Assembly: GCA_011772205.1 (NCBI GenBank)
Contig: WVZY01000076.1
Coordinates: forward strand, 114,567 to 178,566
DNA length: 64,000 bases
DNA from: Candidatus Latescibacterota bacterium
GTDB taxonomy: Bacteria; Krumholzibacteriota; Krumholzibacteriia; WVZY01
Reading direction: 5' to 3'
Shown here: positions 40,959 through 59,680 of the stretch, one piece after another
How positions within the stretch are numbered: the first letter of the stretch is position 1
How the letters are laid out: each line of letters starts with the position of its first letter
Translations under genes and position numbers: made by a program
Notes under the pieces: model-generated
What the model saw: only the letters and a program-made list of their open reading frames with translations
The model's database searches: none
Told to the model about the DNA's origin: nothing

Positions 40959-41321
40959 GGCTACCTCGCTCGGGGATTAGCAAAAAACGAGATGAGTGAG
41001 TGTGCCAGGAAGGCGCTTAGGTTACCAGAATAGCGACTTTTTCGCAAGCGGCATCGATGTGAGGATGGGTGCATTCATTCTCTCCATCCATACCAAGGAG
41101 ACGATGGGCGCTGCGTCATCGGCAGGAGGATCCAATTGGTATGCAGCTTGCAGTTTTCTGTACGGCGCTTTCAACCGGCGTGGTTTGGAAAATTTCTATT
41201 CAACTCAAAGGGAATTGTGACGAATATGTTTCCAGTTGCAGAGCACGCTGATATTTTTAGTCGAGCACCACGAGTCGGCGTGTATCGGGAGAAAAAAATT
41301 TTCGCAGCTGCGATGTTTTTT

Positions 41322-41351
41322 CTTGACACCTTGTCTTACAAATGACTAAAA
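41322..41351 (+). promoter_or_regulatory. candidate promoter for the basic repeat protein gene
   Basis: TTGACA, a 17–18-nt spacer, then TAAAAC, about 130 nt upstream of the ATG. Confidence 0.3.
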
Positions 41352-41481
41352 CATCAAAAAAAGCTGTTATCGCAACAGTGTTCTGCTTTTTCGTTGTGTG
41401 ATTGCGAGCTCTTAACCCATGAAGGAGGTGAAACGAGAAGGTCGTTAATTCCTCTTTCACCCTTACCGAAAGGAAGAAGTA

Positions 41482-41688
41482 ATGGCAGTAAAGAAGAGGA
41501 GAGCCAAAGCCAAAACCAAAGCCAAGCGCAAAGTGAGGCGTAAAGCCAAGGCCAAGACCAAAGGCAAGCGCAAAGTGAAGCGCAAAGCCAAGGCCAAAAC
41601 CAAAGCCAAGCGCAAAGTGAAACGCAGAAAAGCCAAAACCAAGGCCAAGGCAAAGCGCAAAGCCAGGCGCAAAGCCAAAAAGAAATAA
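41482..41688 (+). CDS. small, highly basic KAKA-repeat protein (histone H1-like / nucleoid-associated candidate)
   Basis: 68 aa made almost only of K, A, R, T and V in ~14-aa repeats (AKAKTKAKRKVKRK). Strong AAGGAAG ribosome-binding site, and a strong terminator downstream. Confidence 0.7.
   Translation: MAVKKRRAKAKTKAKRKVRRKAKAKTKGKRKVKRKAKAKTKAKRKVKRRKAKTKAKAKRKARRKAKKK
41497..41685 (+). repeat. ~42–45-nt imperfect tandem repeat (about 3.5 copies) encoding the KAKA repeats
   Basis: Units such as GCCAAAGCCAAAACCAAAGCCAAGCGCAAAGTGAGGCGTAAA recur with few substitutions. Confidence 0.8.
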
Positions 41689-41760
41689 TAGCGCAATATG
41701 AGCAACCGGTATAGCTGATTGCTCAATGCTAGGCTTTGGGAATACAACAATTTAAACCAA

Positions 41761-41797
41761 GAAAAGGGAGAGCTAACATAGGCTCTCCCTTTTCTTG
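41761..41797 (+). terminator. rho-independent terminator
   Basis: 13-bp perfect stem GAAAAGGGAGAGC/GCUCUCCCUUUUC with an 8-nt loop, ending in a U-rich stretch. Confidence 0.7.
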
Positions 41798-42003
41798 TCA
41801 CCACTTAGTATACTCGCTCTATTGTGCGCGCCGGAAGGCACAACATCATGCTAAAGTCTTTTGTGGCTTGACATTTCACAACAATTCCTCTATATCTTTC
41901 CCGCTAGGTACGCATGGATTCGTCGAATGGGCGCTCCGGTCGGATTAGCATTCAATTCGATCGTAGAGGATCGTTTATGAACGAGCATCTCAGGAGGTCT
42001 TCA

Positions 42004-42549
42004 ATGCACTATGCTCCCTCAAATATGTTTCTGACCAGGGGAATGGGTAGACACCGTGAGAAGCTCACGAGTTTCGAGCTGGCCTTGAGAGCAGCTGGGA
42101 TCGCCTCATACAATCTTGTTTCGGTATCGAGTATTCTCCCACCACACTGCAAGCTGATTCCAAAATCGAAGGGCATTGGCTTGCTGCAGGATGGAGAAAT
42201 TGTCTACTGCGTGCTCAGCCGCAATTCCACCAACGAGCCGCATCGATTGATCGGCGCATCCATCGGGGTGGCTATTCCCGCTGATCAAGGCCGCTATGGG
42301 TACCTGTCGGAACACCACAGCTACGGGCAAAAACAGAAGACGGAGGGGGAATACGCAGAAGATCTCGCCGCCACAATGCTGGCGCACACCCTGGGAATCG
42401 AGATAGATCCGGACCAAGCTTGGGATGAGCGGAAAGAATACTGGAAAATCGCAGGGCGGATAGTGAAGACGACGAACATTACCCAAACTGCCGTTGGCAA
42501 AGACAAGTTATGGACATCGGTGGTCGCTGCAGCCGTCTTCTGCGGATAG
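42004..42549 (+). CDS. pdaD: pyruvoyl-dependent arginine decarboxylase
   Basis: PdaD-family motifs FLTRGMGRHREKLTSFELALRAAGIASYNLVSVSSILPP, where the Ser-Ser is the self-cleavage site. Start chosen at the ATG with an AGGAGG ribosome-binding site. Confidence 0.8.
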   Translation: MHYAPSNMFLTRGMGRHREKLTSFELALRAAGIASYNLVSVSSILPPHCKLIPKSKGIGLLQDGEIVYCVLSRNSTNEPHRLIGASIGVAIPADQGRYGYLSEHHSYGQKQKTEGEYAEDLAATMLAHTLGIEIDPDQAWDERKEYWKIAGRIVKTTNITQTAVGKDKLWTSVVAAAVFCG

Positions 42550-42745: not shown

Positions 42746-43618
42746 ATGAAAGAAAAGAAAGATGGATTCCTCGAGGACAAAATTGAGCCGGTGGCCGTCG
42801 TGCGGGAGCACAACAGCTATGTGCTGTCCCTCATACCCTATGAGGAAACCACTACCTATATAAAAGGAACAGCTGGTGCTCCGGAGGCAGTCGTTGAGGC
42901 TTCGAGTCACATGGAGCTGATAGATGAGTCACTGGGGATCGATGCTTCGAAACACGGCATTCTTACGCTCAGACCCACTATAACTAGTTTGAAATCAATT
43001 AGTTCCCATGTCAGGGGAGTTATAGCAGATTATCCCGATGCGTTCCATGGATTCATTGGGGGCGAGCATTCTATTACACCCGCTATAATAGAAGGACTGG
43101 GGGAAGAATCACTGGGGATCATCTGGATCGATGCCCATGCGGACCTCCGGGAAGCCTACGGCGGAAGGCGCGATAACCATGCGTGCGCAGGCTTTAATAG
43201 CGCATTGTTCGGTCCGATAGTCCAGGTGGGGGTGAGGACGCTGGCCGAGGAAGAGCTGGAGTACCTCGGGAAATCGGATAGGGTGGCTGCTCACCGCCGG
43301 TGGGGCGAGGCAGCAGAAAAAGCAATTATGGCGCTTCCGCAGAGAGTGTATCTCAGCGTTGATGCGGATGGATTATCACCGGAATTAGTGCGCTCTGTGG
43401 GAACGCCGGAGCCTGGGGGGCTTTCCTGGGGAGAAATGATGGAAATCCTCGAAATCGTCTTCAAAAACAAGGAGGTCTGCGCCTTTGACGTGGTGGAACT
43501 GTGTCCGCAGCCGTCAGACGTTGTCTCCAACTTTACGATTGCGAAGCTGATCTATAAGATCCTCTCCTATCACGCGCTTCATAAGATCGAAAAGCGCGCT
43601 CCCCGACCTGTTCTATGA
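42746..43618 (+). CDS. speB: agmatinase (ureohydrolase family)
   Basis: Arginase-fold Mn-binding motifs GGEHSIT, DAHAD and SVDADGL. Located downstream of pdaD. Confidence 0.8.
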   Translation: MKEKKDGFLEDKIEPVAVVREHNSYVLSLIPYEETTTYIKGTAGAPEAVVEASSHMELIDESLGIDASKHGILTLRPTITSLKSISSHVRGVIADYPDAFHGFIGGEHSITPAIIEGLGEESLGIIWIDAHADLREAYGGRRDNHACAGFNSALFGPIVQVGVRTLAEEELEYLGKSDRVAAHRRWGEAAEKAIMALPQRVYLSVDADGLSPELVRSVGTPEPGGLSWGEMMEILEIVFKNKEVCAFDVVELCPQPSDVVSNFTIAKLIYKILSYHALHKIEKRAPRPVL

Positions 43619-43706
43619 CTCCTTCTGGAAACCGACCAAGCGGAATGCTCGAGTTAAAACGCGAGAGGACTCTTCTCCGCTACCTCTCCTGGTTTTCGCA
43701 TCCTGG

Positions 43707-44009
43707 CTATTCAGGGTATTTCCTGAAAATGAGGTACAAGCCAAATATGATGAGCAGGATTGGGGGAACGGGATGCCCAAATACGCCGAGGGTGTAGAGC
43801 AGCCAGAGGATGCCGACGCCGACGATGATCAGCCCCCCAGATGGTGAAATGGCCAGGGCTTTCCACCTCTTGCCAGCTTCTGGATCCTCCCTCAGGCGCT
43901 GCTTCCCCTTGTCGAGGCTTTCTTCCACGCGCTTGACACCTTCCGAGACAGTTTTGGAGATCTTCTCCGTCACTTCATCCAGCTTCTTCTCGAATCCTTT
44001 TTGCTCCAT
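43707..44009 (-). CDS. small membrane protein (amphipathic N-terminus, two C-terminal TMs)
   Basis: Start at MEQKGFEKK with a strong AAAGGAG ribosome-binding site. The longer ORF is unsupported. Confidence 0.5.
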   Translation of the reverse strand: MEQKGFEKKLDEVTEKISKTVSEGVKRVEESLDKGKQRLREDPEAGKRWKALAISPSGGLIIVGVGILWLLYTLGVFGHPVPPILLIIFGLYLIFRKYPE

Positions 44010-44180
44010 GCCGCTCCTTTCTATGTCTCGTTCATCATACACCAATCGGGTGTATTGGACATACTGTTTTTCGAGATAAGCTCTCCCAGCAGGTGCCCCC
44101 AAGCAAGGCATACATGCCTGTGGATAATGGGCTTCGGGCTCGCGGCACCCAGGGGAACGTCCCGCCGCCAAAAAATGCAG

Positions 44181-54946: not shown

Positions 54947-57900
54947 CTATTGCATTCTGTCGTAATCTCTTAAACGCACATACAGCGTTGGCTTGGTGAT
55001 ACCGAGAAGCTCGGCTGCCTTGGTCTTTCCTCCCACAAAATCGACCATTTTTTTGGCGAGAATGGGCTCGACTTGCTGAAGCAACGGGTTGGCTTTGGAG
55101 TAGGTGCTTCGCTCGATGATCTGCTGGATGAGCGCCTCGAGGCTTTTGTGCGGCTGGCCTCCCGATTCGGATACCTTTTCCAGGAAGTCCTCAGGCAGTG
55201 AACCGGGATGAATCACGTCGTCATCGGATAGCAACACGATTTGTTCGATTAAGTGCTGGAGCTCCCGCACGTTTCCTTCCCATGGGGCTTTCTGGAGAAT
55301 CCTTATTGCGTCCGGAGCAATTGTCTTTCGGAGTACTCCGCTTTCAGAGCATCGTTTTTCCAAATAATCCAGCGCGATGGCAACGATGTCTTCTTTTCTA
55401 TCGCGCAGAGGTGGTATCCGGATTTGAAGGACGTTCAACCGGTAATATAAATCCTTTCTGAACTTTCCCTGCTCGCAGAGTTCTTCCAGGTCTTCATTGC
55501 TGGCCGCGATGATGCGAACATTCGAATGGATCTTTTTCGTTCCACCGACGCGATTGAAGCTCTTGCTTTCGAGGAAGTTCAGTAGCTTTGTCTGTATCGT
55601 CATCGGAATGACATTGACATCGTCGAGAAAAACCGTCCCCCCGTCCGCTTTCTCGCACAAACCGAGTTTGCGCGCCACTGCGCCGGTGAAGGCACCTTTT
55701 TCGTGTCCGAAGAGCTCACTTTCGAGAAGGCTTTCGGGGATCTGAGCACAGTGGATGTCCTGGAACACCTTGTGGGATCTGGGGCTGTTGTAATGAATTG
55801 CCCGCGCAAGCTCCGTTTTGCCCGTGCCGCTTTCGCCGATGATGAGGATACCGGTGTCTATGTCCTTGACTTTTTCGATGGTCCGGAAAATTTTTCTCAT
55901 CGATTCACTCTTGCCGATGAGGTTCTCGAAGCGGTACTGATCTTCGACCTGCGCTTTGAGGGCCACGACTTCCTCCACCAAGCGTTCCTCTTTGTGAACG
56001 TGCTCTTCGAGATGGAACATCAGCGTCAAGATCCCGGAAATATGTCGACCAAGGGCTGTGAAAAAGTTCAAGTTGTCTTTTGAAACGGGGAGCGAATCCT
56101 GAGGCATATAGAAGAGGAGGCACCCCAAATCTTCCCTTATTGCTTTGAGCGGGATACACACAAATCCTCCCCCTCCCACATCAATCTGGGGTGCGAGATC
56201 CAACGCGTCTGGTGAGCTGCTTTCCAAAACGCGACCCAGAAGGAGCGTTCTGTTCATTAGTTCCGTCAGGCCCTCATCCTGAAGAGATTTCTCCCTGCCT
56301 CCCGCGTCGATAACAGCGAATCGACCGTCTTCTCTCTTGAGAATGAGGCGGCATTCGTCGGGACCAATGATATTCCGGGTGAGGTCCAGAATTCGTCTGA
56401 AGCACTCATTCCTGTCGAAGGGGGGTTCGAAGAGCAGGCTGAGCTCGTAAAAGGCTTTGAGGAGATTCTGGGTTTGGCTCCCTGCGATGTAGGTCCGCGC
56501 AGGATGCGCCCTGATCTCCTCACGAAGAGTGATGATCTCCTCCGGAACCTCATGACCGAAGTCTGAGTGGATCTGGCGCTCTGCCCTGTCCAGGTATTGC
56601 ATCGCGTCGAATGTGTTGGCGCCGCGAGCGTGAAGGAGCCCAATCTTCGCGAGCGCCGCTGCAGCGAGACGGTTGTTCGATAATGTTGTAAAGGCGCTCG
56701 CAGCTTTTTCATAGTATTCCAGCGCCTCCATCAGCTTGTTCTGCTCTGTTTCCAGGTCTCCCAATATCATGTTGATTTGCGCGCTCTCGTATTTTGAGCC
56801 GATCAGCGTGGCGAGCTCCGATGCTTTTTCAACGTGCTCTCGTGATTTGGCATACATTTTCTGCGTGAGGTAGAGGGTGGAAAGCCGCCTGTGAGAGCCA
56901 AGCTCTACGTTTGTCGATCCGAGTTCGCGCGATATTCGTAGGGAGTCCAGAAAGTATTTTTCGGCTTCCAGATATTGATCCCGGACGGTGGCAATAGCTC
57001 CCAGCGTGTTGTAAATCTCTGCTGTGAGCATGGCTATGCCCAGCTTGGAGCTGATTGCCATGCTGTCCATGCACCGTTTTTCCGCTTCCTCATAATCGTG
57101 CATTTCATAAGAGAGAAGGGCGAGATTTAGGTAAGCGGCGGCTATTCCCACCCGATTGTTTTGCCGCTGTTTGATCTCGAGGCTCTTTTTATAATATTCG
57201 AGAGCTTTATCGTATTCACCTTTGGTTTGATAGGCGAGGGCAAGGTTGTTGTAGCTGCCCGAGAGCGCATTGATGTCGCCGGCGTTCTCTCGGAGCATGG
57301 CGCTCCTGTTGTAGTATCGGATTGCCTCGTCATAACGGCTCGTGTTGAATTGGACCACTCCTGTCAGGTTGAGTGCCTGGGCAACGATGAGCGGGTATTG
57401 ACTCGGATTGAGAGTTGTGAGACTGAGCTTGCAGCACTCGAGGGAATTTTCATAGTTGCCAAGGCGGTAATGGAACCAGCCGATATCATTTAGAAGCTGC
57501 GCCTGCTCTGGCAGCGGGAGCGCTGACTGAAGCTCTTCCCTGACGGCACTGAGAAGGTCGAGGGATCTCTTGTATTCTCCTCTGGACTCCCAGGTATCGG
57601 CCAGCAAACGGCATATGCTGCTTGCGATCTCTGCGTTCTCGCGCCTACCCTCGATTCCCACCTCATCGAGGTTTTGCTTGGCAGTGAGCAGCAAGTTTTC
57701 GGCCTCCCCTGACCGTCCCTTGTCGATCAGATCGATGCTCGCCTCGCGGAGAATAAAGAGCTTGTCGGCTATGGCAAGCGCCTTGTGAAGTCCTCGGTGA
57801 ATGAGTTTCATGCAGTGCTCGAGAATGAGCGCATCCCTGTTGTCACGCCTCGTCTCTCTCAGATAGGACACGCAGTGCTCCGCGGCAAGATGTGTTTCCT

Positions 57901-59680
57901 CCCCTTCCAAAAGGTGGTGGACGAGGAATAGCGCAGGGAAAGCGCTGCGCTCTTCAACATGAAGAGCCACAGTGCGGTGGAGGTTTCTTCTTCTCTCCGG
58001 GGGAATGCTCCGATAGACCAGACGCCGAATCGAAGCGCTTTTCGGGCTGAGCAGGATCGAGACACCTATGCCCGTCCCGTTGGAACGGTATGAAATGCAT
58101 ATCAAATCCAGCGCTGCAAGGCGGTGGATGCACCTGTGGATTTTGCCATCAGATCCAGGAAAAATCGAAAGGGCAATCTGCAGTGGTATCGCAAACTGTG
58201 CAACTGAAACGAATTCCAGGAGTTGCCGTTCTTCTTCCATGAGGCAACCGAGGACTTCTTCGGTCAACCGCTCGAGGGAAGAGGATTTGAATGGACGGTG
58301 GTCGGGTTCGAGGTAACGGACAATACCATTCAAGTATGCTTGCAGCCGGACGGACGGGTGCTCTGCTCTCGTCGTGGTTACGCCGGGCGGGTGCTTGTGG
58401 TGCTCCGGGACGGGCGTCTCTAGCTTATCTGCTGAATCGGATTCATGATACTCGGCAGGCAGATGGAATTCGTGAACTCGCTCTCCGAATTTCCCTTTCA
58501 AGTGATCGATAAAAGCGCTCGACTCCTTCGAAACTCGTGCTGGGTCGATCGTCAGGAGCAGGAGCGTTTCGGAAAGACTGATGTCCTCCTCTAATCTTTT
58601 GGAGATACGGGAGCAGGTCAACGCCCGATCCGTTGCATCGTCAATGATCCACAGGAATTTCGAAGAAGCAGCTCCTTTGGGAACCGTTTTCTTTCTGGTC
58701 TTCCCGGTTATATTCCACTCGTCGGGCCAAAGAACCGTCCAACCACCGTTTTCCGGCAGCGATAGTTTTTCAGCCGCCAATTCAACGATCGTGCTCTTGC
58801 CGGAAAAAGCTTCCCCCTTCAGTACGATGAGGCGGTGACCTTCGGAGACGGCATCGAGCGCATCCTGCACCAAGATTTCCGCCTGCAATGCCGGAAACAT
58901 TTCGGCACGAGAAACGGAGAACGGTATGAGCTGCTGCGGCAAGGGTTCACCGAAGAGTTTCTCGTGCAGAGCCGATAGCGTAACGGTGCTGCCGGATTCG
59001 ATACTGGATCCGGATTCCATAATGATATTCATGAACTCGTCTTCTTGCTGCAATGCCGCGATTGCACCCTTCTTGCGGAGCGGTGCCAGCAAATGTATGA
59101 AACGGGAAATGGCGCGCGGGTGGATGGAAATGGTGGCAGGCAACGTGAGTGCAGTGCTTTTCGATAGTTGAGCCTGGGTGTCGGCTTCGACCTTCGCTGG
59201 ATCGTGCCCACCAGATAACGCAAAAGGAAGTATATAGGCGTTGGGGAGGATGAAAATTCTATTATCCTCGTCAACTCCGATAGAGGCAGGGGACAAGTGG
59301 GGAGCGAAGAAATTGTAGTTTTCCAAATGGGCCAGCGTTTCGATGAGCGTTCTGATCATTTCCTCAAGCGGCAGAAAATCTTGTGGAATGTTTTGGAGCA
59401 GCCGCAAATAGGGCGTGAAAAGTTCGATGCCTCCGTCCGCACTCGTCGCGAAAAGAATTTGCGGGCAATTCGATGGAGAGATTGCCGAAGCGCTGCTGCC
59501 CAGGAATTCGAGGACACCGGGATCAACTGTCGTTCGGTTGATCGTTTGGGTGCGGAGTCGGAGGAATTTTCTTTCGCTGACCAGATCGACAAAAGCGGCG
59601 ATTCGCCAAATTCCGGCCTGGATCTCTTCTTCGATTTGTTCGAGGTTTTTCTGGTAGGGATGGGTGGAACGCATCTCCAT
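54947..59680 (-). CDS. giant multidomain sigma-54-dependent transcriptional activator
   Basis: 1577 aa. N-terminus shows a kinase-like catalytic-loop/DFG pattern with HRD and DFG replaced (…HLSPASIGVDEDNRIFILPNAYI…). Then P-loop Walker A GEAFSGKST and Walker B FLWIIDD, a long TPR array, and a GAF domain. The sigma-54 interaction domain has GESGTGKE, ESELFGHEKGAFTGA and an arginine finger. C-terminal Fis-type HTH (AELLGITKPTLYVRLR). Confidence 0.75.
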   Translation of the reverse strand: MEMRSTHPYQKNLEQIEEEIQAGIWRIAAFVDLVSERKFLRLRTQTINRTTVDPGVLEFLGSSASAISPSNCPQILFATSADGGIELFTPYLRLLQNIPQDFLPLEEMIRTLIETLAHLENYNFFAPHLSPASIGVDEDNRIFILPNAYILPFALSGGHDPAKVEADTQAQLSKSTALTLPATISIHPRAISRFIHLLAPLRKKGAIAALQQEDEFMNIIMESGSSIESGSTVTLSALHEKLFGEPLPQQLIPFSVSRAEMFPALQAEILVQDALDAVSEGHRLIVLKGEAFSGKSTIVELAAEKLSLPENGGWTVLWPDEWNITGKTRKKTVPKGAASSKFLWIIDDATDRALTCSRISKRLEEDISLSETLLLLTIDPARVSKESSAFIDHLKGKFGERVHEFHLPAEYHESDSADKLETPVPEHHKHPPGVTTTRAEHPSVRLQAYLNGIVRYLEPDHRPFKSSSLERLTEEVLGCLMEEERQLLEFVSVAQFAIPLQIALSIFPGSDGKIHRCIHRLAALDLICISYRSNGTGIGVSILLSPKSASIRRLVYRSIPPERRRNLHRTVALHVEERSAFPALFLVHHLLEGEETHLAAEHCVSYLRETRRDNRDALILEHCMKLIHRGLHKALAIADKLFILREASIDLIDKGRSGEAENLLLTAKQNLDEVGIEGRRENAEIASSICRLLADTWESRGEYKRSLDLLSAVREELQSALPLPEQAQLLNDIGWFHYRLGNYENSLECCKLSLTTLNPSQYPLIVAQALNLTGVVQFNTSRYDEAIRYYNRSAMLRENAGDINALSGSYNNLALAYQTKGEYDKALEYYKKSLEIKQRQNNRVGIAAAYLNLALLSYEMHDYEEAEKRCMDSMAISSKLGIAMLTAEIYNTLGAIATVRDQYLEAEKYFLDSLRISRELGSTNVELGSHRRLSTLYLTQKMYAKSREHVEKASELATLIGSKYESAQINMILGDLETEQNKLMEALEYYEKAASAFTTLSNNRLAAAALAKIGLLHARGANTFDAMQYLDRAERQIHSDFGHEVPEEIITLREEIRAHPARTYIAGSQTQNLLKAFYELSLLFEPPFDRNECFRRILDLTRNIIGPDECRLILKREDGRFAVIDAGGREKSLQDEGLTELMNRTLLLGRVLESSSPDALDLAPQIDVGGGGFVCIPLKAIREDLGCLLFYMPQDSLPVSKDNLNFFTALGRHISGILTLMFHLEEHVHKEERLVEEVVALKAQVEDQYRFENLIGKSESMRKIFRTIEKVKDIDTGILIIGESGTGKTELARAIHYNSPRSHKVFQDIHCAQIPESLLESELFGHEKGAFTGAVARKLGLCEKADGGTVFLDDVNVIPMTIQTKLLNFLESKSFNRVGGTKKIHSNVRIIAASNEDLEELCEQGKFRKDLYYRLNVLQIRIPPLRDRKEDIVAIALDYLEKRCSESGVLRKTIAPDAIRILQKAPWEGNVRELQHLIEQIVLLSDDDVIHPGSLPEDFLEKVSESGGQPHKSLEALIQQIIERSTYSKANPLLQQVEPILAKKMVDFVGGKTKAAELLGITKPTLYVRLRDYDRMQ

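Follow-up and report, generated by a model that had tools for sequence, protein, structure and literature searches.

A lineage-specific family of alternating lysine-rich polycations encoded directly upstream of pdaD in uncultured Latescibacterota and Krumholzibacteria

Described lysine-rich proteins and the window gene

Among bacteria, a few pathogens are the known sources of 'histone H1-like' lysine-rich proteins, whose roles, among them DNA compaction, the spacing of polyphosphate granules and the activation of translation, are under revision. Here we describe a gene for a stand-alone polycation of 68 residues, found in a stretch of 64,000 nucleotides from a Candidatus Latescibacterota bacterium (contig WVZY01000076.1, positions 114,567 to 178,566; hereafter the window). 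The best-described proteins with which its product can be compared are the chlamydial protein Hc2 and the repeat proteins AlgP and PhaF. Hc2 (HctB) comprises 165-237 aa, binds both DNA and RNA, condenses the nucleoid and represses both transcription and translation (PMC2848022). The KPAA domains of the other two have DNA, polyphosphate granules (in AlgP, PMC9239181) or mRNA (in PhaF, with activation of translation, PMC12818456) as their ligands.

The product of the window gene (MAVKKRRAKAKTKAKRKVRRKAKAKTKGKRKVKRKAKAKTKAKRKVKRRKAKTKAKAKRKARRKAKKK) fits no described family and looks like the H1-like proteins only as an analogue; none of the testable defining features of Hc2, Hc1, AlgP/PhaF, linker histone H1, protamine P1 or the small ribosomal proteins was found in it. 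Hc2 and the window protein are both rich in Lys, Arg, Ala, Thr and Val, with almost no acidic residues and a regular charge pattern, and both consist of tandem repeats that vary in number between strains while the frame is kept (PMC2848022). However, the Hc2 pentamers carry two basic residues in five (40%) and are arranged in 36-aa elements between conserved non-repeat flanks (PMC2848022), whereas the window protein has 68 residues of which 65% are basic, a two-residue period, a 14-aa unit and a short conserved N-terminus, and belongs to another phylum. Neither the Hc2 (PF07382 HC2) nor the Hc1 (PF07432) profile gave a match, at E <= 0.01 for the window protein and E <= 10 for six family members.

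AlgP and PhaF share with the window protein Lys/Ala-rich tandem repeats that resemble the H1 tail, clonal variation in repeat number and a high net charge (PMC9239181, PMC12818456). Their KPAA repeats, by contrast, are Pro-rich with one basic residue in four, while Pro is absent from the window protein and numbers at most four in other members; moreover, they form tails on a folded N-terminal domain (124-aa helical; phasin), whereas the window protein is the tract alone. Protamines and the H1 tail are likewise small, of low complexity and without a globular domain, and a part in neutralising DNA charge is presumed for the window protein as well. Protamines are nevertheless Arg-based, often with Cys, whereas the window protein is Lys-dominated and showed no sequence relationship to either in Pfam or the PDB; nor did the winged-helix domain of linker histones H1/H5 (PF00538) find a match in it. 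The K-A/K-T/K-V alternation recurs in matches to the family profile such as P0123 (DksA-type zinc finger) and P0128 (SWIB), whose (K-x)n tracts are joined to DNA-acting domains as in the DdbA-type proteins (H1-like + DksA) of Streptomyces (PMC3643593), but such tracts are accessory tails on enzymes or regulators, none stands alone beside pdaD, and the similarity is compositional only. The likeness to Hc1/Hc2 or AlgP put forward in a first-pass annotation of the locus is one of analogy only, since no Pfam or NCBIfam family model matched and the architecture, with its two-residue period and 65% basic content, differs.

Coding status, family and repeat variation

The window protein is composed of 31 K, 13 R, 14 A, 4 T, 4 V, 1 G and 1 M, without a single D or E. 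Lys and Arg therefore make up 44 of its 68 residues, considerably more than the 'about 45%' first estimated, and the net charge is +44. A basic residue occupies 23 successive alternate positions (45 aa); the corresponding runs are longer still in three relatives, reaching 39 positions in L088 (77 of 80 aa), 45 in L089 and 56 in L002 (111 of 116 aa). Runs of these lengths were not reached by any of 2000 composition-preserving shuffles (seven members, with runs spanning 45 to 111 residues). The residues between the obligate basic positions are Ala, Thr, Val, Arg or Lys. Across the family 53-73% of residues are basic, which is the protamine range of charge density, and the sole acidic residue is one Asp in L009. 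All relatives whose 5' end is complete share a conserved N-terminus, MA(V/A)KKRRAK, the motif extending over only 8-12 aa. Neither a folded domain (by Pfam and NCBIfam scans) nor a signal peptide was found in the window protein.

Repeats of this kind can be open in several frames by chance, and some of what is seen would also be expected if the array were non-coding or arose in assembly: frames -1 and -2 are likewise free of stop codons over the array, where they give mechanical open reading frames (ORFs) of 113 and 99 aa, and the array coincides with breaks or gaps in six related assemblies. Stop codons alone are consequently not decisive. Only the Lys frame, however, has an ATG after a conserved AAAGGA(A/G)G together with a kept N-terminus in the relatives with a complete 5' end. 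In six pairwise comparisons the ratio of nonsynonymous to synonymous polymorphism (pN/pS) was 0.17-0.26 in the Lys frame, against 0.33-0.59 in the complementary frame and >0.65 in the others, with the caveat that the alignment was built at protein level in the Lys frame. Nucleotide differences pile up at codon position 3 of that frame (for example, 19/30 and 33/56), and the orientation of promoter and terminator matches the + strand. Additionally, the periods of the array are always multiples of 3, and there are non-repetitive members of 24 and 31 aa. An independent assembly (Logan, run ERR2564001) is identical to the window across 12,207 nt, array included, so that the array is no artefact of a single pipeline, and the Logan gene call (contig L001) includes the ORF. 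Together with a ribosome-binding site, a promoter and a terminator that belong to it alone, these features mark the ORF as a genuine gene, as the first-pass annotation had it, and as a monocistronic one.

Two antisense ORFs, at 41463..41804 (-; 113 aa, Leu/Ala/Arg-rich) and 41354..41653 (-; 99 aa, Trp/Leu/Phe-rich), showed no sign of selection and were set aside as by-products of the stop-free repeat. Codon bias (GCC, ACC, CGC) was dropped as a gauge of expression level because it is confounded by homogenisation of the repeat.

Direct searches were of little use in finding relatives. A phmmer search with the window protein against 5.8 billion proteins returned no match and failed to recover the query itself, and an exact cluster look-up found no entry for it. 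Pfam gave no match for the window protein at E <= 0.01 and none for six family members at E <= 10, negatives that have to be read with the composition correction of HMMER in mind, which penalises such sequences. The NCBIfam scans, which took in seven members including the shortest and the longest, gave no match for the window protein at E <= 1 and, for six members at E <= 10, only one match, of 7 bits and due to chance, with a cell-wall-binding protein. In the PDB the only match was the Lys-rich low-complexity tail of ribosomal protein eL29 (E = 0.001), which is compositional. A profile of six members searched at E <= 10 recovered compositional look-alikes only and no family member.

The family was instead located through the neighbouring PdaD; every locus was reached via pdaD, so that sampling is one-directional. 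Four loci of the genome collection whose PdaD is 75-77% identical to that of the window (labelled Candidatus Krumholzibacteriia, Latescibacterota and, in one case, Binatia) have the gene, and two at 57-60% are without it. The metagenome collection yielded two loci with the gene, at 75% PdaD identity, and 78 without it, at <=69%. It is also present in all nine further loci, whose PdaD homologues are 71-84% identical. Overall, the gene lies just 5' of pdaD in 17/17 loci with PdaD at least 71% identical (two pairs being near-duplicates) and is absent from 80 loci at <=69%, about 68 of which include at least 500 nt upstream of pdaD. Within the clade, then, pdaD always has the small gene upstream, a result that covers the surroundings of pdaD only.

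The small gene thus represents an unannotated, lineage-specific family in metagenome-assembled genomes of uncultured Latescibacterota/Krumholzibacteria. We propose to define it as a small ORF starting MA(V/A/T)K or MPVKK, with at least 53% basic and at most one acidic residue, preceded by a TTGACA promoter and a leader of ~125 nt, followed by a hairpin terminator and located directly upstream of pdaD. The window gene has all of these features in common with L002, L009, L088, L089 and L092-L097, and the partial genes L003-L005, L008, L090 and L091 agree with them where sequence exists.

The arrangement of the ORF in tandem DNA repeats was borne out by Tandem Repeats Finder, the 42-nt period encoding a 14-aa unit (KAKAKTKAKRKVKR). 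In the relatives the array periods are 12, 18, 24, 36, 48, 60 and 111 nt. Full-length members measure 24, 31, 63, 66, 68, 78, 80, 98, 99, 116 and 144 aa, so that the variable copy number anticipated in the first-pass annotation is seen when related genomes are compared; the 31-aa and 24-aa versions, in two relatives, are barely repetitive and lie at the equivalent site. Members of the family drift in length as short DNA repeats, whose unit differs by lineage, expand and contract without a change of frame. In six related assemblies the array is interrupted by a contig end or a gap of 100 N (the gap at L003 5460-5559; breaks at the 5' ends of L004, L005, L008, L090 and L091). Since assemblies break inside the array, sampling is probably biased against longer alleles, and copy numbers derived from short reads need caution. 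CP070631, a metagenome-assembled genome deposited as a complete chromosome, is among the assemblies interrupted within the Lys-repeat array.

Transcription unit, leader and polyamine neighbourhood

The features of the locus are collected in Table 1.

Table 1. Features of the polycation locus and the adjoining operon (positions in the window).
Feature	Position	Strand	Basis
Promoter -35 region TTTCTTGACAC, with TTGACA at 41323-41328 and T/A-rich sequence before it	41319..41329	+	Inferred; conserved
Putative -10 TAAAAC, 18 nt after -35	41347..41352	+	Inferred from relatives
5' leader, ~125 nt, start approximate	41359..41481	+	Length and sequence blocks conserved in relatives
Leader hairpin, outer helix GAAGGAGG...CCUCUUUC, inner AACGA/UCGUU	41421..41458	+	Predicted folds
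Shine-Dalgarno AAGGAAG, 5 nt before ATG, partly within CCUU...AAGG hairpin	41470..41476	+	Read from sequence
Coding sequence, alternating (Lys/Arg-x)n protein, 68 aa, including stop codon	41482..41688	+	ORF list and translation
42-nt tandem repeat in the DNA, 4.2 copies	41502-41679	+	Tandem Repeats Finder, 82% matches
3' UTR hairpin GAGCAA...TTGCTC, 12 nt past stop codon	41700..41724	+	Read from sequence
Intrinsic terminator, perfect 16-bp stem, 8-nt loop	41758..41797	+	-29.5 kcal/mol, z = -7.8
Downstream-operon promoter TTGACA, 17 nt, TATATC	41868..41896	+	Inferred from consensus
pdaD, pyruvoyl-dependent arginine decarboxylase	42004..42549	+	PF01862 E = 1e-56; NF009064 E = 5e-55
Agmatinase-family ureohydrolase	42746..43618	+	PF00491 (Arginase family) E = 2e-43

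A TTGAC(A) element lies 144-160 nt 5' of the ATG in 11/11 loci with a complete 5' end, and the relatives have TAAAAC, TAAATC, TAAACC or ATAACA 16-18 nt past it as counterparts of the putative -10 box. A consensus promoter scan found no promoter for either the small gene or the pdaD operon because it required a T as the sixth base of the -10 box, which both boxes lack; both promoters were therefore assigned on conservation and not on the scan. The ribosome-binding site given in the first-pass annotation is indeed present, and all 11 complete loci keep AAAGGA(A/G)G ahead of the ATG.

Equivalent leaders were found at L002 1681-1808, L009 938-1056, L088 495-624 and L089 3290-3420, and also in L093 and L094; the leader motif TTCACCCTTACCNAAAGGA occurs once in the window. 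Rfam gave no match for either the leader or the 3' untranslated region (3' UTR), at gathering and E-value thresholds alike. In the leader hairpin a Shine-Dalgarno-like strand, GGAGR (5'), pairs with an anti-Shine-Dalgarno-like YCUCC (3'). This hairpin is present in the minimum free energy fold of 7/7 leaders of one subgroup (group A) and in their RNAalifold consensus, and the group-A folds and RNAalifold also agree on the small hairpin that holds the real Shine-Dalgarno. In the alignment of the seven sequences 91% of cells are paired, slid controls scoring lower, and three pairs have changed in both strands, compared with 0.9 for shuffles, of which 14 out of 500 attain three. Coming from seven related sequences, this modest covariation is no more than suggestive. 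RNAalifold applied to six leaders from both subgroups gave no meaningful consensus, and only the seven group-A leaders align well. A structured leader embedding the ribosome-binding site suggests that synthesis of the protein is controlled at translation. A pairing of an upstream CCAUG with the start codon, which appears in single-sequence folds, showed no covariation and is not claimed.

The perfect hairpin of the terminator had been recognised from the outset, its stem, however, being of 16 and not 13 bp, with an 8-bp G+C core (GGGAGAGC/GCUCUCCC) followed by UUUUCUUG. Every relative has a G+C-rich hairpin and a T-run at this position with a differing stem sequence; one such stem, GGAAGAGG/CCUCUUCC, differs from that of the window by two compensatory pair changes. 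The hairpin in the 3' UTR might stabilise the mRNA. At the equivalent site hairpins of other sequence were seen by eye in L088, L089, L003, L008 and L090. Between the terminator and pdaD, TTGAC(A/T)-17-TATAxx (or -ATAAT) is found in all relatives read there, L009 not being among them. With a terminator of its own and a separate promoter for pdaD, the small gene is monocistronic and distinct from the pdaD operon.

Pfam matches confirmed that the gene lies directly upstream of pdaD and an arginase-family gene. The start of pdaD is most likely 42004, which lies 6 nt past a GGAGG, agrees with the Logan gene call and aligns with homologues, rather than the mechanical ORF start at 41914. With this start the pdaD mRNA would have a leader of ~105 nt, for which there was no Rfam match. 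The ureohydrolase, which the first-pass annotation had called speB, scores 143 bits with the agmatinase model TIGR01230, below its cut-off of 174. The third gene of the operon in 9/9 relatives for which there is a gene table is deoxyhypusine-synthase-like (PF01916; for example, L088 2929-3858, L089 5524-6498 and L092 5394-6371), whereas no homologue of deoxyhypusine synthase or SpeY was found by tblastn in the 64 kb of the window, nor at the equivalent site, 43619-44180. SpeY enzymes couple two agmatines, and the accompanying 'agmatinase' is a specific ureohydrolase that yields homospermidine (PMC13625781). From its gene content the operon of the relatives points to this homospermidine pathway and not to plain putrescine synthesis. 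As the window is without the deoxyhypusine-synthase-like gene, the product of the pathway in its genome is uncertain, and its 'speB' may not be a plain agmatinase.

Upstream of the small gene the neighbour changes: L089, L093 and L094 have, like the window, an NhaC-type antiporter there, L092, L095 and L097 a DUF362 Fe-S protein, and L096 and, past a gap, L003 other ORFs. That the adjacency to pdaD persists meanwhile is mild evidence for a retained linkage. A functional pairing of the polycation with the polyamine genes is kept here as a hypothesis drawn from conserved synteny, because the clade shares broad synteny, sampling was one-directional and the two are separate transcription units. 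The wider setting is chromosomal and unremarkable; gltX, ilvC, tRNA genes and transporters are close by. Further along the window, a STAND-type NTPase, many TPR repeats and a sigma-54 activator AAA+ domain are joined in one 1577-aa protein (54947-59680, -), which is unusual among enhancer-binding proteins.

Probable binding partner and competing explanations

We propose, with moderate confidence, that the protein acts in the manner of a protamine, as a stand-alone polycation that compacts the nucleoid or coats DNA or other nucleic acid. By analogy with protamines, the histone H1 tail and chlamydial Hc2, a domain-less protein with a charge of +44 would bind nucleic acid independently of sequence and neutralise its charge. 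The absence of a domain and of a signal peptide, the extreme charge and the six-fold length range together suit a sequence-independent binder of polyanions, and a tolerance of lengths from 24 to 144 aa would fit a generic binder of this kind, as in Hc2 with its 165-237 aa (PMC2848022). Synthesis of the polycation would be controlled at translation through the structured leader.

The compositional look-alikes returned by the family profile bear on the nature of the partner. Their (K-x)n tracts are fused to four DksA-type zinc fingers, three SWIB domains, a SET domain, a topoisomerase I repeat, an FtsK-gamma domain and a FEN-like nuclease (examples being P0123, with the DksA-type zinc finger, and P0128, with SWIB). 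In the best profile match the tract is N-terminal on an AlkA-like glycosylase, with an ogt-like (methyltransferase) gene adjoining, both read by eye. By association, the fusion of most of these tracts to DNA or chromatin domains tilts the function towards DNA. In unrelated metagenomic bacteria, DksA-type zinc-finger, SWIB-domain and AlkA-like proteins (P0123, P0128; L098 155-436) carry (K-x)n tracts at their N-termini; going by such architectures, they point to a widespread modular tail, putatively DNA-binding, for which there is no family model.

The two-residue period may also be informative. On an alpha-helix such a period distributes both classes of position evenly round the axis. An extended chain, by contrast, brings all obligate basic side chains onto one face, ~6.5-7 Å apart, near the phosphate-phosphate distance along a nucleic-acid strand. 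From this geometry we infer that the window protein, when bound, would be extended, with its basic side chains on one face and spaced like successive backbone phosphates. The beta-branched residues Thr and Val fit an extended state.

Several points weigh against the proposed role in coating DNA. The searches of Pfam, NCBIfam and the PDB indicated no homology to a characterised DNA-binding protein, and the matches with fused domains, at E 0.002 to 10, are insignificant; they are compositional look-alikes and not relatives. AlphaFold2, given the single sequence of the window protein, predicted one continuous helix (pLDDT 92.5) and no globular fold, in conflict with an extended chain. For a Lys/Ala-rich low-complexity sequence, however, this is weak evidence: we regard a single helix as the usual output and judged the model uninformative. 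An unbound helix with a charge of +44 is physically implausible, while one induced by a polyanion may form. The copy number of the repeat may be collapsed in a short-read assembly. Lastly, comparable Lys-rich tracts bind RNA (PhaF, PMC12818456; Hc2, PMC2848022) or polyphosphate granules (AlgP, PMC9239181), precedents by which the preferred polyanion of the window protein may be other than DNA.

An RNA- or ribosome-associated polycation, binding rRNA or mRNA and modulating translation or RNA stability, is the strongest of the alternatives, though we consider it fairly unlikely. Hc2 sets the precedent, being RNA-binding and translation-repressing as well (PMC2848022); the single PDB similarity is to the tail of a ribosomal protein, albeit a compositional one, and the members of 24-31 aa match the small basic ribosomal proteins in size. 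Ribosomal-protein mRNAs have autoregulated leaders, to which the long structured leader described here is similar in style. Yet small basic ribosomal proteins have a fixed length, and a family that spans 24-144 aa with lineage-specific units is hard to fit into a fixed ribosomal slot. Furthermore, no ribosomal-protein model of NCBIfam or Pfam matched, the gene is outside any ribosomal-protein cluster, and the (K-x)n tracts of other proteins are fused mostly to domains that act on DNA.

Polyphosphate is a quite improbable partner. On electrostatic grounds the window protein would be expected to bind it avidly, and AlgP of Pseudomonas, a Lys-rich repeat protein with a charge of +55, sits on polyphosphate granules, which its repeat domain spaces (PMC9239181), so that a comparable condensing or tethering of granules can be envisaged. 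Nonetheless, no polyphosphate-related domain was detected in the ~20 neighbouring ORFs scanned (~28.9-59.7 kb of the window) and none was seen in the neighbourhoods of the relatives; the folded N-terminal domain of AlgP, a second attachment, is absent from the window protein, and no specific evidence favours this partner.

It is very unlikely that the ORF serves in cis, its Lys and Arg codons sensing arginine, lysine or polyamines during translation and setting read-through into the pdaD operon while the peptide itself is without function. The position of the ORF, invariably directly 5' of an arginine-consuming polyamine operon, would suit such a device, constraint on Lys/Arg codons would by itself lower pN/pS, and there is precedent in speFL, a small sensor ORF upstream of polyamine genes. 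Leader-peptide attenuators, however, have no intervening promoter, whereas here a strong terminator and then a TTGACA-17-TATAxx promoter (TTGACA-17-TATATC in the window, 41868-41896) precede pdaD in every locus read there. The stop codon lies 70 nt ahead of the terminator, no antiterminator is evident by eye, most members, at 63-144 aa, are far longer than known leader peptides, and codon sensing leaves the strict alternation of basic residues with A, T or V unexplained. The last alternative, a non-coding repeat or an assembly artefact, was already disfavoured by the evidence on coding status and is scarcely credible.

Going beyond the coating of nucleic acid as such, one may imagine the polycation as a major chromatin or nucleic-acid coat that forms, with the adjacent (homo)spermidine-type pathway, a two-component module of charge neutralisation, in which a leader that senses the protein or polyamines sets the dose and rapid in-frame expansion of the repeat tunes the length of the chain; we rate this as improbable. 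Even more speculative is a variant in which the lysines of the polycation would be substrates of the neighbouring deoxyhypusine-synthase homologue.

Should the protein prove merely another non-specific nucleoid protein, it would be a modest addition to a known class. The family nevertheless stands apart in being a tract without a folded domain, with charge density in the protamine range, an unusually strict two-residue periodicity and hypervariable length. Genes of this kind are systematically missed, as there is no family model, HMMER fails on the query itself and trypsin would destroy the protein; short-read assemblies, too, break within the array. In a phylum without a cultured model, the small gene would offer a minimal natural system for how a bacterial cell tolerates, regulates and uses a pure polycation.

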